Source: Escherichia coli
GTDB taxonomy: Bacteria; Pseudomonadota; Gammaproteobacteria; Enterobacterales; Enterobacteriaceae
Assembly (NCBI RefSeq): GCF_003334815.1
Contig: NZ_QOWO01000001.1
Length of the DNA stretch: 64,000 bases
Reading direction: 5' to 3' (one strand)
In this document: in pieces, positions 13,300 to 56,133 of the stretch
How positions within the stretch are numbered: position 1 is the stretch's first letter
How the letters are laid out: the number at the start of each line of letters is the position of its first letter
The notes under the pieces: model-generated
The model's input: the letters and a program-made list of their open reading frames with translations, nothing else
Told to the model about the DNA's origin: nothing
The model's database searches: none
Made by a program: the position numbers and the translations under genes

Positions 13300-13485
13300 A
13301 ATACCCGATCTTCTGCGCATCCTCGCGACTAATGACAACCCTAACCCAGCTCTATGTGGGTAAAGCCTCTCATTAGCCGCGCGAACCTCTGCAACGGAAG
13401 ATCATTCATAGCAACAATACATTAGTTTCCAGTGAATTGCTGCCGTCAGCTTGAAAAAAGGGGCCACTCAGGCCCCCTTTTCTGA
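13300..13485 (+). ncRNA. sraG: Probable SraG (PsrO) sRNA, antisense to the pnp leader; boundaries approximate
   Basis: Placed from recall of an sRNA in the rpsO-pnp intergenic region opposite pnp; the shared hairpin at 13454-13482 could terminate a plus-strand transcript. Exact ends not determinable here. Confidence 0.3.
13454..13482 (-). terminator. rpsO Rho-independent terminator (hairpin usable on both strands)
   Basis: Minus strand AGGGGGCC-TGAGT-GGCCCCT followed by TTTTTT, directly after rpsO stop. Confidence 0.85.
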
Positions 13486-13497
13486 AACTCGCAAGAA

Positions 13498-13863
<366 letters not shown>

Positions 13864-15337: not shown

Positions 15338-15405
15338 GACCTGATAAGACGCGCCAGCGTCACATCAGGCAATCCATGCCGGATGCAGCGTAAACGCCTT
15401 ATCCC
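15338..15405. repeat. Pair of REP elements downstream of infB
   Basis: GACCTGATAAGACGCGCCAGCGTCACATCAGGC and GCCGGATGCAGCGTAAACGCCTTATCC. Confidence 0.7.
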
Positions 15406-15424
15406 GCATGGAACCCTAAAAACC

Positions 15425-20089: not shown

Positions 20090-20145
20090 GCCCACCCCCA
20101 AGACATAAAAAAAGGGCCTAAAGCCCAGTTATTCTGTAGTCAGAT

Positions 20146-20171
20146 AACAAAAAACCCCGATAAATCGGGGC
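20146..20171 (-). terminator. Rho-independent terminator/attenuator between metY and rimP
   Basis: Minus strand GCCCCGAT-tt-ATCGGGG followed by TTTTTTGT; a second weaker GC hairpin plus T7 lies at 20107-20126. Confidence 0.7.
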
Positions 20172-20295
20172 TTTATATAACTGAACCCTATAACCGCAAC
20201 TGCGGTCTGGAGCACTTTCCAGAAGGATTTTTTCAAATCCCACTACGAAGGCCGAAGTCTTCACAGTATATTTGAAAAAGGACTCTAAGGGAAAG

Positions 20296-20372
<77 letters not shown>

Positions 20373-24154: not shown

Positions 24155-24241
24155 TGGTACCGAGGACGGGACTTGAACCCGTAAGCCCTATTGGGCACTA
24201 CCACCTCAAGGTAGCGTGTCTACCAATTCCACCACCTCGGC
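24155..24241 (-). tRNA. leuU: tRNA-Leu (GAG anticodon)
   Basis: Reverse complement reads GCCGAGGTGGTGGAATTGGTAGACACGCTACCTTGAGGTGGTAGTGCCCAATAGGGCTTACGGGTTCAAGTCCCGTCCTCGGTACCA, 87 nt. Confidence 0.95.
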
Positions 24242-30892: not shown

Positions 30893-30926
30893 AAAAAAAT
30901 ACCGACCCGGGTACAAGTCCCAGGTC
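30893..30926 (-). terminator. graL: Hairpin plus U-run in the greA leader (probable terminator generating GraL short transcripts)
   Basis: Minus strand GACCTGGG-ACTTGTA-CCCGGGTC then GGTA and TTTTTTT, about 95-130 nt upstream of greA ATG. GraL assignment from recall. Confidence 0.5.
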
Positions 30927-31045
30927 AGCTACAATTCACATTTTGATAGTCATTTTACCCTGAAGTTCCCGAAGGGTCATCGTTTACTTTATAGGGCGTT
31001 GCGCCGTAGTATGACGGCTCGATTCCAGGTTGTTAGCGCGAGATT

Positions 31046-51167: not shown

Positions 51168-51892
51168 TCCAGCTGGTGTTGTTGCATAAACGGCTCACCG
51201 CCTAACTGATACATCTGCCGTAAAATCCACGCCTGACGGCTACGCACGTAGCCCGATGGCGAGGAGACTTTGAAACGAAGTGGATTAGGTAATACAGCTG
51301 CCAGTAATGCAGCTTCCGACCGGGTAAGTTTGCTCGCGGGTTTGTGGAAATAACGTTGTGCCGCAGCTTCGACGCCAAACACACCGTCGCCAAATTCGGC
51401 GATATTCAGGTAAACCGTCAGGATACGCTTTTTGCTCCAGACCGTTTCTATCCCCAGCGTTAATCCGGCTTCCAGCCCTTTTCGAACCCAGCTACGCCCA
51501 TCCCATAAAAAGAGATTTTTGGCTGTCTGTTGAGAAATCGTTGAAGCACCGCGAATACGGTTTTCATTGCGCTCGTTGTGCGCCAGGGCTTTCTCAATGG
51601 AAGCGACATCAAAGCCCCAGTGCTCAGGAAATTTCTGATCTTCTGCGGCAATCACCGCCAGTCCCATCCACGGCGAGATTTGATCCATACTGACCCAGTC
51701 AGAATGTGCCACGTAACGAAAATTGCCATGCAGCCAGGCGCTGACCTGTCGCTCGACCATTACCGCTGAGAAGGGAACAGGCGCAACGCTAAACAACGCG
51801 ATGCCCCCGCCCCAGAAAACGGCGAGGACAACCATTAACCGCAAAAGAAAACGGCGAACGAAACTAAACACCGTTAAGCGGCTTTTACTCAT
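51164..51892 (-). CDS. mtgA: Monofunctional biosynthetic peptidoglycan transglycosylase
   Basis: ORF track 242 aa; N-terminal TM anchor plus glycosyltransferase-51 motifs. Confidence 0.95.
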
Positions 51893-52542
51893 TCAGCCAG
51901 AACCAGCACGCGGGAAACCAGCTTATCAATGCCGCTCGCCGCTTCTGCAATGTTCTGCGCCAGCATATATGCTGGGGTGGTGACAATCTTATTGTCTTCA
52001 TCAACCACGATATCATCGACAGGACACGGCACATGCTCCGCGCCCATCTCTTCCAGCACTTCTGCGGTATCGATATCAGTACCGATGGTCAAACGCAGCG
52101 GGAAATCGAAAATTTTCGGCAGCATCGCCGGGGCAATACACATAAAACCAAGCGGTTTTCCGGCCTGATGCATCGCTTGTGCCAGCGCCTTTAATTCACG
52201 GTCAACGGTGCATTCGCTACCAAGACTGGCAAAATTGCTTAAATTCTTCGCCGCGCCAAACCCCCCCGGCACAATCAACGCATCCAGTTCAGCGGCATCG
52301 GCCTGGGCCAGAGGACGGATTTCACCGCGCGTTATTCGTGCCGCTTCAATCAGCACATTGCGCGTTTCCGTCATCGCTTCGCCAGTTAAATGGTTGATAA
52401 CATCAACCTGCTGCTTATCCGGTGCAAAGCAGACCGCCTGCGCACCGCTGCGTGAAATAGCTAACAACGTCAACACCGCTTCATGAATTTCAGAACCGTC
52501 ATAGACGCCGCATCCGCTCAGAATTACGCCAATTTTCTTCAT
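51889..52542 (-). CDS. elbB: DJ-1/PfpI-like protein ElbB (YhbL)
   Basis: ORF track 51889..52551; start trimmed to [13 protein letters not shown] (217 aa); 4-bp overlap with mtgA. Confidence 0.93.
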
Positions 52543-52659
52543 TGTGATCATCCTTTCGCAATTGACTGAAACACATTAATTTTTTTAATAAAAATGGTAC
52601 GCATCACACATTTAACTGATTCATGTAACAAATCATTTAAGTTTTGCTATCTTAACTGC

Positions 52660-52780
52660 GTGCGGCCTGAAAAACAGTGCTGTGCCCTTGTAACTCATCA
52701 TAATAATTTACGGCGCAGCCAAGATTTCCCTGGTGTTGGCGCAGTATTCGCGCACCCCGGTCTAGCCGGGGTCATTTTTT
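52660..52780 (+). ncRNA. arcZ: ArcZ (RyhA/SraH) Hfq-dependent sRNA, convergent with arcB
   Basis: Sequence GTGCGGCCTGAAAAACAGTGCTGTGCCC...GCGCACCCCGGTCTAGCCGGGGTCATTTTTT matches recalled ArcZ (121 nt) with terminal hairpin CCCCGGTCTAGCCGGGG plus T6; 3' end overlaps arcB stop. Confidence 0.9.
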
Positions 52781-55108
52781 AGTGGCTTTTGCCACCCACG
52801 CTTTCAGCACTTCTACGTCGTGACGCCACTCTTCTTTCATCTCTTCAATCCATTCACCGACGTTATCTTCCCAGGCCGGAAGGTCAGGAGACTGAATTTG
52901 CTGACCCAGCTGTTGCAGATGGCGTAACCCCACTGACCCCGCCGCACCTTTAATTTTATGTCCTTCCTCAACAATGCCTTTTTTATCCTGCGCCGTCAGA
53001 TTCGACTCCAGCACGCTGACATAGCCCGGCATCATCTTCTCAAACACCGCTAACCCGTCGGTGATCAGCTTCGGTCCTACAAGTTCGAGATACTGTTCCA
53101 GCATGGGAATATCGAGCAATGCTTCTGATTTACTGTTCTCTTCTGTCGTCACCGTACTCTCCTCATCATCCTGGGTATCCCAGAATTTCTTGATCATCGC
53201 GGTTAGCGCCGGAACAGAAAGCGGCTTACTCAGCACATCATCCATTCCAGCATTGAGGTACTCTTGTTTGTCTTTCAGCACGTTAGCGGTTAAGGCCACC
53301 AGCGGCGGTAAATCCTCGCGCGGATAACGTTTCGTCAGTTCACGAGAGATATCCAGCCCGGTCATATCTGGCAACTGAATATCCAGCAACACCAGGTCGT
53401 ATTCGCCCGGTTTAAACATCTCCAGCGCCGCCTTGCCGGTCATGGCGACATCAACGCTGTTACCTAATTTTTCCAGCACAGAACGCGCAACAATCACGTT
53501 CAGTTCAATGTCTTCCACCAGCAGCACATTCAGCGCCGGTAAAGGCATATCGTCTTCATCAAACGCATCATCGACCTCTTCTGCTACCGACGGTGCGTGG
53601 ATCGTCAACGTAAAGGTTGAACCTTTGCCCTGTTCGCTGGTAACCGTAATATCGCCGCCCATATTTTTCGCCAGACGACGAGAAACGGCCAGACCAATAC
53701 CGGTGCCGGTGGCAGGTTTACCGCCATGACTGTCTTTCACCTGGTAATACATGGCGAAAATTTTATCCAGCTCATCCTGCGGAATGCCGATACCAGAGTC
53801 TTCCACTTCAAAATGCAGCATATCGCCTTCATCGTAGCGCACGCGCACGGTAACCTGGCCTTGCTGGGTGAATTTGACGGCGTTACTGATGAGGTTCCAC
53901 AGGATCTGCCGTAAACGCGTCCCGTCGGTAATGACCTGATGCGGTAATGGCAGCGTCGGCTCCAGGTTAAAGCGCAATCCTTTTTGTTGCGCCTGCAATG
54001 CGGAGAGATTTTCCAGATCGGCAAGGAAGCTGGTGAAATCAACCGGTTGATTATCAAGCTGGACCTTGCGCCGTTCCATCTTATCCATGTCGATAATATC
54101 GTTAAAGATATTCCCCAGCGTGACGGCCGAAACATGGATGGTCTTGAGATATTTTTCCTGCTCGGCGGTGAGTTCGGTATCCAGCAGAATGCGGCTCAGA
54201 CCGACGATACCGTTCAGCGGTGTACGCAATTCGTGACTGATGGTGGAGATAAACGTCGTTTTGTCGCGGCTGGCCCGTTCAAGCGCATCCTGATACCGCT
54301 TACGCTCGGTAATGTCGCGACCAAAGCCCATCAAACCGTGACGTTTACCCACGCGGTCGTAGTACGGCACTTTACGGATTTCAAAGCAGGCTTTGCGCCC
54401 GTCCGGGTAATCCAGCCACTGTTCATAGGTCAGTGACACATTATGACGGAACACTTTTTCATCGGTTTCAATGACTTTTGCGGCGGCTTCCGGTGAGTAA
54501 ACATCAGCAGGTTTCAGGTGAACCAGTTGTTTTTCGCTTTTTCCGGTCAGCAGCTCCATCGCGCGGTTACAGCCGGAAAACTCTTTATCTTCGTTACGAT
54601 AAAAAACCAGGTCGGGTGAAGCATCAAGGAAGGAACGTAAGAATGAGGATTGCTGCTCGAGCTGAATTTGTGTCTCTTCGCGCTCTTTGATTTCAATTTT
54701 CAGTTGGCCGAAGGTTTCCTGCAGTTCTGCTTCCGCTTTTTCACGAACGGCAATTTCCTGATTTAGCTGGGCAATATTATCTTTTAACTGAACGTTGAGG
54801 CTCAAATCGCGCTCGCGCATCTCCTCCAGTTTTTGCACCAGCCGTGACAGACGTTGTCGTGACTCCTCCAGTTGCTCGACGACCACCGATAGAAAGTAGA
54901 CCGCCCACGGCGTAATCAGCAAACCAAAGAAGATAGAACGAATAACATCAATGCTTTCGACCTGACCATGCAGCACCATGGTTACCGCCATTTGTACCAC
55001 AATGGCAAGAACGACGAGGGCCAGCGCCAGCAACATTGAGAAGCGCACCAGACCTAACTTCATCATCAGGTCAACATAATACTGCGCCAGCAGACGAATT
55101 TGCTTCAT
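52772..55108 (-). CDS. arcB: Aerobic respiration control sensor histidine kinase ArcB
   Basis: ORF track 778 aa; TM anchor, PAS, kinase H-box ISHELRTPLN, receiver and HPt domains. Confidence 0.97.
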   Translation of the reverse strand: MKQIRLLAQYYVDLMMKLGLVRFSMLLALALVVLAIVVQMAVTMVLHGQVESIDVIRSIFFGLLITPWAVYFLSVVVEQLEESRQRLSRLVQKLEEMRERDLSLNVQLKDNIAQLNQEIAVREKAEAELQETFGQLKIEIKEREETQIQLEQQSSFLRSFLDASPDLVFYRNEDKEFSGCNRAMELLTGKSEKQLVHLKPADVYSPEAAAKVIETDEKVFRHNVSLTYEQWLDYPDGRKACFEIRKVPYYDRVGKRHGLMGFGRDITERKRYQDALERASRDKTTFISTISHELRTPLNGIVGLSRILLDTELTAEQEKYLKTIHVSAVTLGNIFNDIIDMDKMERRKVQLDNQPVDFTSFLADLENLSALQAQQKGLRFNLEPTLPLPHQVITDGTRLRQILWNLISNAVKFTQQGQVTVRVRYDEGDMLHFEVEDSGIGIPQDELDKIFAMYYQVKDSHGGKPATGTGIGLAVSRRLAKNMGGDITVTSEQGKGSTFTLTIHAPSVAEEVDDAFDEDDMPLPALNVLLVEDIELNVIVARSVLEKLGNSVDVAMTGKAALEMFKPGEYDLVLLDIQLPDMTGLDISRELTKRYPREDLPPLVALTANVLKDKQEYLNAGMDDVLSKPLSVPALTAMIKKFWDTQDDEESTVTTEENSKSEALLDIPMLEQYLELVGPKLITDGLAVFEKMMPGYVSVLESNLTAQDKKGIVEEGHKIKGAAGSVGLRHLQQLGQQIQSPDLPAWEDNVGEWIEEMKEEWRHDVEVLKAWVAKATKK

Positions 55109-55203
55109 TAGGGAATTCCTTCACGACAACCTGCCCCAATAATACCCAATTCTGACAGTTACGTTATAAATTGTGTGAGAAATGCGGAATTCCCCTCAAC
55201 GAC

Positions 55204-56133
55204 CTACTCCGTTGGAGGTAGCCACGGACGTCCCAGCGCCGATCCCTGTACGCCATGTTCATTCAGATAGCGATCCAGCTCGACCATTCCCGTCCATCGA
55301 TTTTCGCACCACAGCGGAGCAAGCAGCGTCGGGCGACGGGCGCTGGCGGAAATGCGGTGGTAGATCACTTCCGGTGGCGTATGGCGAATCATTTCTCCGG
55401 CAGTGAGCGTGTAATCCTCCAGTTCAATACCGTTCAAACGCCCCGCTTCCCAGGCTTTCGCCATAATGCTGCCTTTCACAATATGCAGCGGATGCAGCTT
55501 TATGCCGTCCACGCCGGTTTCAACCACTCGCTCCAGCGTTTGCAAACATTCAGCCTGCCCTTCGCCAGGCAGGCCGACAATTAAGTGGGAACACACCTTC
55601 AGCCCGCGCTGACGTGCCAGCTGGGTTGTACGCTGATAACAGGCAAAATCATGGCCGCGGTTGATGCGATGCAGTGTTTTGTCGTGGGCGGTTTGTAGCC
55701 CCAGCTCCAGCCACACTTCGTAACCCTGGTCCTTATATTCGCAAAGCAGATCCAGCACCGCATCCGGCACGCAGTCCGGGCGGGTACCCACACACAAACC
55801 GACAATATTGGCCTGGCTCACCGCCTGCTGATACATAGAACGCAGCACCTGAACTTCCGCAAAGGTGCTGGTATACGCCTGAAAGTAGGCCAGATAGCGT
55901 TTAGCGCGGTTAACTAAATTCGCCTGGTGCGCCAGTTGCTCGGCAATGGAACGATGCTGCTGCGCTTCATCGGCAAACGAGGCAACATTACAGAATGTGC
56001 AGCCACCACGCCCGATGGTACCGTCACGGTTAGGGCAGCTAAAACCGCCGTGCAGCGTCAGCTTATGCACCTTTTGCCCATAACGACGGGTGAGATCACC
56101 ACCAAACATATTGACTAATTTCTGTAACTGCAT
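55204..56133 (-). CDS. yhcC: Radical SAM protein YhcC
   Basis: ORF track 55204..56166; start trimmed to MQLQKLVNMFGG (309 aa); Cys motif CPNRDGTIGRGGCTFC. Confidence 0.9.
   Translation of the reverse strand: MQLQKLVNMFGGDLTRRYGQKVHKLTLHGGFSCPNRDGTIGRGGCTFCNVASFADEAQQHRSIAEQLAHQANLVNRAKRYLAYFQAYTSTFAEVQVLRSMYQQAVSQANIVGLCVGTRPDCVPDAVLDLLCEYKDQGYEVWLELGLQTAHDKTLHRINRGHDFACYQRTTQLARQRGLKVCSHLIVGLPGEGQAECLQTLERVVETGVDGIKLHPLHIVKGSIMAKAWEAGRLNGIELEDYTLTAGEMIRHTPPEVIYHRISASARRPTLLAPLWCENRWTGMVELDRYLNEHGVQGSALGRPWLPPTE

Follow-up and report, generated by a model that had tools for sequence, protein, structure and literature searches.

In Escherichia coli K-12 and Salmonella, the small RNA ArcZ (SraH/RyhA) and the gene arcB form a convergent pair, whose overlap and mutual repression were reportedly described by Argaman in 2001, Papenfort in 2009, and Mandin and Gottesman in 2010. 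The small RNA owes its name to this overlap with arcB. A comparable pair is GadY-gadX, reportedly the subject of work by Opdyke et al. in 2004 and 2011, in which an Hfq-binding small RNA is likewise convergent to a regulator gene, is complementary to the 3' UTR of gadX and acts in cis via a duplex and RNase processing. However, pairing with GadY has a positive effect, as it stabilises and processes the gadX-gadW mRNA, whereas a decrease of arcB mRNA is reported for ArcZ; moreover, GadY has no overlap with coding sequence, whereas ArcZ overlaps the arcB CDS and plays its main roles in trans. Another likeness is found with the bidirectional intrinsic terminators between convergent genes, said to have been mapped by Ju et al. 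in 2019 with SEnd-seq, since one G+C-rich hairpin is common to two convergent units. A bidirectional terminator requires an A-tract before the stem and a T-tract after it. The 5' flank of the ArcZ stem is the invariant core of the small RNA (GCGCA), and termination is therefore one-directional only. Finally, SdsR (RyeB) and RyeA (SraC) are also convergent, with fully complementary transcripts whose duplex is a substrate of RNase III, but both partners are non-coding there, whereas one partner is an mRNA in ArcZ-arcB and the overlap includes its stop codon. The SdsR/RyeA pair is the top double-stranded RNA (dsRNA) cluster of the p19 dataset of Huang et al. 2020 (PMC7373196), in which GadY is also found. 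As for ArcZ itself, a 2024 review (PMC11331407) describes the arcZ/arcB overlap and the reciprocal repression, and grades the antisense mechanism, in one direction, as 'speculated'. PMC3937726, citing Mandin and Gottesman 2010, states that 'ArcZ destabilizes antisense arcB mRNA'.

The locus analysed here is the published one. Indeed, positions 51583-55583 of the window (the whole stretch of 64,000 nucleotides that was analysed) are identical to E. coli K-12 MG1655 3349500-3353500 at 4001 of 4001 bases, window position 1 corresponding to MG1655 3297918. With this conversion, arcZ (b4450; RefSeq MG1655 3350577..3350697, plus strand), which encodes the primary 121-nt ArcZ small RNA, lies at 52660..52780 (+), and arcB (b3210; RefSeq MG1655 3350689..3353025, minus strand), which encodes a sensor histidine kinase of 778 amino acids identical to the MG1655 protein and is present in the ORF list, lies at 52772..55108 (-). 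The next gene 3' of arcB on the minus strand is elbB (51889-52551, -), so that arcZ is located between elbB and arcB and is convergent with the latter. The identification of ArcZ proposed by the first-pass annotation is borne out by the Rfam family RF00081, which matches 52660-52767 (+) over the full model (positions 1-106 of 106) with 120.8 bits for a gathering score of 66 (E 9.6e-28), and alignment to the reference ArcZ sequence gives an exact match. The identity and the geometry of the locus are certain; the overlap is real, but it was already annotated and published. Compared with the published ArcZ-arcB locus, sequence (100% identical), RefSeq coordinates and 9-nt overlap are the same, no difference was found, and only the species counts given below are added. 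Within the species, an 801-bp query around the site was matched in 5417 of the 5426 complete E. coli genomes, with an identity of at least 99% in 4609 of them. Nine genomes have no match, one match is carried on a plasmid, and sequence NZ_CP042892.1 (region of window position 52565) is matched only from query position 266 onward, in two places; these absent or split matches point to rare rearrangements immediately ahead of the arcZ promoter.

The terminator scan and the RNA fold place the intrinsic terminator stem-loop of ArcZ (ACCCCGG-TCTAG-CCGGGGT) at 52754..52772 (+). It is the single plus-strand site of the scan, with a stem of 8 pairs, 6 of them G-C, followed by CATTTTTT, and the fold of the 121-nt RNA has this hairpin at its 3' end. 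The U-tract (U6, the expected Hfq-binding 3' tail) occupies 52775..52780 (+). These positions uphold the earlier claims that a terminator ends ArcZ and that it covers the last arcB codons and the stop codon. On direct reading, positions 52772-52774 are TCA on the plus strand, the complement of the arcB TGA stop codon (52772..52774, -), and positions 52775-52780 are TTTTTT, the complement of the codons AAA AAA of Lys777-Lys778 (52775..52780, -), with which the ArcB C-terminus (...KATKK) ends. Of the three bases of the stop codon, the third forms the outer end of the stem (A52754-U52772 pair), and the first two make up the CA spacer ahead of the U-tract. The stop codon thus lies where the terminator stem gives way to the U-tract.

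Strand-specific 3'-end mapping is available from published Term-seq data (Adams et al. 2021, PMC7815308, supplementary file 1), in which the dominant ArcZ 3' end is MG1655 3350696, that is window position 52779, the fifth U of the U-tract, within the arcB CDS. This strong plus-strand end is in agreement with the first-pass annotation. The coordinate is entered three times in the table, which covers three growth conditions, and two of these entries carry scores of 50512 and 89664 and the class 'internal arcZ, antisense arcB'. The extent of the overlap depends on the end that is taken: the 9 nt of the annotation (52772-52780) hold as far as the annotated end at 52780 is concerned, whereas the measured end at 52779 gives 8 nt.

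Directly 3' of the arcB stop codon, the minus strand folds into the mirrored hairpin; the sequence that comes next is GCGCGAAUACUG and not a U-tract, so that arcB transcripts cannot stop there intrinsically. The terminator scan found no minus-strand intrinsic terminator between the arcB stop codon and elbB; its only minus-strand terminator-like site, at 51402-51387, is far downstream, inside mtgA. The tables of Adams et al. 2021 (PMC7815308) likewise contain no minus-strand Term-seq 3' end in MG1655 3350000-3350699. As there is no minus-strand terminator before elbB, the arcB mRNA must run antisense into arcZ, and annotation, Term-seq and the terminator scan together show that the transcribed regions of arcZ and arcB overlap on opposite strands. 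We infer that the arcB 3' UTR extends over 52552..52771 (-), antisense to all of arcZ and reaching the start of elbB. In stationary phase, a p19-captured dsRNA cluster, S-273, was assigned to arcZ with 5449 RPM (Huang et al. 2020, PMC7373196), and the same source notes that Lybecker had likewise classed it as dsRNA, and Conway as overlapping transcripts. The coordinates of this cluster are those of an older genome version; after conversion with an offset of +1978, checked on metY (same table, same window), the cluster would correspond to about 52501-52832, which takes in the whole of arcZ plus some 50 nt of arcB. The complementarity of the two transcripts at their 3' ends, which the first-pass annotation had deduced, is thus supported by both the lack of a minus-strand terminator and the dsRNA cluster.

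Upstream of ArcZ, a by-eye reading of the sequence points to TGcTATCTT (52645..52653, +), which ends 7 nt ahead of the ArcZ start site, as a putative extended -10 of the arcZ promoter; the consensus promoter scan left this promoter below its threshold and unflagged. Inactivation of arcZ by a mutation of the -10 promoter element, chosen to spare the overlapping arcB, was used by Bak et al. 2013; since a deletion of arcZ truncates arcB, promoter mutations are used instead. No match to the ArcA direct repeat TGTTA-N6-TGTTA (with at most 2 mismatches) was found at 52560-52660, in line with Park et al. 2013, where the region ahead of arcZ likewise showed no ArcA site. In the whole window, this repeat is not enriched at the same threshold (48 observed for 40.8 expected), and a resemblance to an ArcA site seen by eye at the arcZ promoter was dropped for its wrong spacing. 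The arcZ promoter of the widely used laboratory strain C600 (NZ_CP031214.1) is interrupted by an IS1A element that adds 776 bp, with an 8-bp target duplication (AAGTTTTG, window 52639-52646); the element separates the -35 region from the extended -10 and lies 14 nt ahead of the ArcZ start. This insertion should change the expression of ArcZ and hence the control of RpoS.

Within ArcZ, a match to the RNase E consensus RN/WUU (G-A/U-U-U, 52723..52727, +) predicts a cut at 52724/52725, which would release the processed active form, composed of the seed and the terminator (52725..52780, +). The predicted cut lies exactly 56 nt from the annotated 3' end, and a 56-nt active form is reported in the review (PMC11331407). 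The conserved 3' seed CCCUGGUGUUGGCGCA is found at 52728-52743, directly after the RNase E site, as quoted for this motif in the same review. The invariant core of ArcZ, GGTGTTGGCGCAGTATTCGCGC (22 nt, 52732..52753, +), which has exact matches in Enterobacterales, was used as the pattern for the species search.

The ORF list also contains a 62-amino-acid ORF at 52594..52782 (+), which the first-pass annotation had read as non-coding, and this judgement holds. The ORF starts with an ATG and runs for 62 codons, but the only mapped start site, that of ArcZ, is 66 nt downstream of this ATG, and no Shine-Dalgarno sequence precedes the codon. It is annotated neither in RefSeq MG1655 nor in the other RefSeq E. 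coli genomes among the matches listed. Its conservation is poor: among the matches listed, the frame ahead of the core is closed or startless, and so contains no ORF, in 86 of 113 species, most species have in-frame stops at a distance of 4-27 codons on the 5' side of the core, and only an internal ORF of 40 amino acids is left in Escherichia albertii. Its 3' third is nothing other than the invariant seed and terminator of the RNA. Conservation, annotation and position rule it out as a gene; it almost certainly encodes no small protein and would be better left uncalled by annotation pipelines.

The conservation of the arrangement was examined with an exact search for the 22-nt core in one genome per bacterial species, which gave at least 120 species loci, in Enterobacterales. 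The core is identical in all of these at least 120 species genomes, whose genera include Escherichia, Salmonella, Klebsiella, Citrobacter, Enterobacter, Yersinia, Rahnella, Erwinia, Pantoea, Photorhabdus, Xenorhabdus, Proteus, Providencia and Morganella; Pectobacterium and Dickeya are outside the sample, and the proportions given here hold only for the matches listed. The ArcB C-terminus is encoded directly downstream of the core in 119 of the 120 other species loci among the matches listed, the sole exception being a locus too short to be tested. As the search pattern excludes both the terminator and the stop codon, it does not predetermine how they are arranged. The arcB stop codon was placed by tblastn-anchored frames in 121 sequences including the window, of which 119 (118 other species and the window) could be evaluated.

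Among the matches listed, the stop codon is located at the junction between the stem and the U-tract in 100 of these 119 species, with an overlap of 9 nt (16 species), 10 nt (40) or 11 nt (44). The review PMC11331407 gives the overlap as 'usually ten bases' and reports its absence in Pectobacterium carotovorum; the present counts are a small refinement of this statement and do not change it. In the remaining species among the matches listed, the overlap is limited to 0-2 nt in 8 of 119 (Morganella, Pluralibacter, some Pantoea and one Enterobacteriaceae isolate), the two genes are separated by a gap of 4-78 nt in 10 of 119 (Pantoea, Mixta, Chimaeribacter), and the stop codon lies inside the hairpin loop in 1 of 119 (Pantoea sp. 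1.19, with an overlap of 23 nt). The hairpin itself varies, with 35 distinct forms across the 121 sequences (the matches listed and the window). Among the matches listed, its stem shows compensatory changes, from G-C to A-U at pairs 6 and 7, and C-G, U-A or U-G at pair 8. In Serratia sp. M24T3, the T-run falls one base short of that of its relatives, and the arcB frame reads through the whole processed ArcZ, which adds about 19 residues; this is either a real frameshift or a sequencing error in the homopolymer.

Enough flanking sequence for a re-analysis was available in 98 of the canonical species. Among the matches listed, all 98 encode an ArcB ending in KK with the codons AAAAAA, their stop codon is TGA in 68 cases, TAA in 30 and TAG in none, and the T-run is 6-8 nt long. 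The ArcB tails of the non-canonical species among the matches listed are REK, SR, RR, QDK and similar; the kinase can therefore do without the KK tail, which is most simply explained as imposed by the terminator of the small RNA.

Taken together, these data make it very probable that ArcZ ends intrinsically within the end of arcB, that the arcB mRNA is antisense to ArcZ, and that a duplex of the two RNAs leads to mutual repression. In this model, ArcZ is transcribed from 52660 on the plus strand as a 121-nt Hfq-dependent small RNA, ends at its intrinsic terminator (3' end at 52779), and could be cut by RNase E at 52724/52725 into the active 56-nt form. The arcB stop codon fills the junction between stem and U-tract, the last two lysine codons serving as the template of the U-tract. 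Transcripts of arcB would continue antisense through the terminator and the seed of ArcZ. By reading on in this way, each arcB mRNA would include a tail perfectly complementary to the 3' end of ArcZ at the least, and probably to the whole processed ArcZ. The ArcZ:arcB duplex would then be degraded by RNases, resulting in a reciprocal repression that could add to the repression of arcZ transcription attributed to ArcA-P and reinforce the ArcA-P/ArcZ switch.

Several other explanations can be set against this duplex model. The overlap could be a neutral by-product of tight packing, the terminator happening to use the A-rich end of arcB, the 9-nt coding overlap having no regulatory role of its own and ArcZ acting only in trans (on rpoS, flhDC, mutS and others). 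This is consistent with the loss of the arrangement in a number of species: the stop codon lies outside the terminator in about 18 of the 119 species among the matches listed while both genes are retained, P. carotovorum has no overlap (PMC11331407), and the gaps of 4-78 nt found among the matches listed in Pantoea, Mixta and Chimaeribacter, where the coding overlap is dispensable, also count against the duplex model. It is also consistent with reports that, in Klebsiella pneumoniae, the levels of ArcZ are independent of arcA and arcB and its phenotype is independent of arcB, and that the acid resistance induced by ArcZ in E. coli is independent of arcB. However, in every species examined among the matches listed, the mirrored hairpin of the arcB strand runs into the invariant ArcZ core, which leaves no U-tract there, and the transcripts should therefore overlap even without a coding overlap. 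The in vivo dsRNA cluster at arcZ (PMC7373196), the lowering of arcB mRNA by ArcZ reported in PMC3937726, and the retention of the junction stop in 84% of the species, in several families, among the matches listed, also argue against mere packing, which we consider rather unlikely. Another explanation would confine the RNA overlap to about 27 nt, the ArcZ terminator being bidirectional and also ending arcB. The hairpin is indeed close to a palindrome and can fold just as readily on the minus strand after the arcB stop codon, but there it lacks the U-tract, neither the scan nor the tables of Adams et al. 2021 place a minus-strand end at the locus, and the dsRNA cluster spans all of arcZ. With a U-tract on one strand only and no minus-strand terminator up to elbB, a bidirectional intrinsic terminator was rejected as very unlikely.

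Mutual repression could also result from transcriptional interference, by collision or occlusion of convergent polymerases, instead of RNA-RNA pairing. The genes are convergent and no minus-strand terminator precedes the arcZ promoter, as this would suppose, and a Rho termination region antisense to arcB (MG1655 3351461, score 15.2, p 9.7e-69; Adams et al. 2021) shows that there is plus-strand transcription downstream of arcZ, which Rho holds down. Set against this are the destabilisation of arcB mRNA by plasmid-overexpressed ArcZ, a trans effect reported in PMC3937726, and the RNase III-type dsRNA fragments captured at the locus (PMC7373196), which make interference distinctly unlikely and a duplex the more plausible cause of the repression. 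The Rho region is located at about window position 53544 (+), some 765 nt downstream of the ArcZ 3' end, and its transcript could be either ArcZ read-through or the product of an internal antisense promoter kept in check by Rho.

Elsewhere in the window, Rfam matches above the gathering score include the small RNA SraG (13310-13481, +), the ribosomal S15 leader (13711-13825, -), naRNA4 (15338-15408, -), the rimP leader (20107-20207, -) and the greA leader (30894-31015, -), all expected for this part of the K-12 chromosome. Two tRNA genes are also present, namely a tRNA-Met (CAT; metY; 20296-20372, -) and a tRNA-Leu (GAG; 24155-24241, -). In the data of Huang et al. 2020 (PMC7373196), metY ranks near the top of the p19-captured dsRNA clusters, implying that this locus has antisense or read-through transcription.

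In summary, the species counts show that the terminator of a small RNA and the C-terminus of a protein have been tightly locked together over a long evolutionary time. That the arcB stop codon sits exactly where stem and U-tract meet might even be the result of selection and not merely of inheritance, although we regard this as highly doubtful. If this were true, a ribosome terminating at the arcB stop codon would cover the mirrored hairpin and the first ArcZ-complementary part of the 3' UTR, and full translation of arcB could gate the formation of the ArcZ:arcB duplex, coupling the synthesis of the kinase to the decay of the small RNA. At the least, the terminator of the small RNA dictates the last two residues of the kinase.
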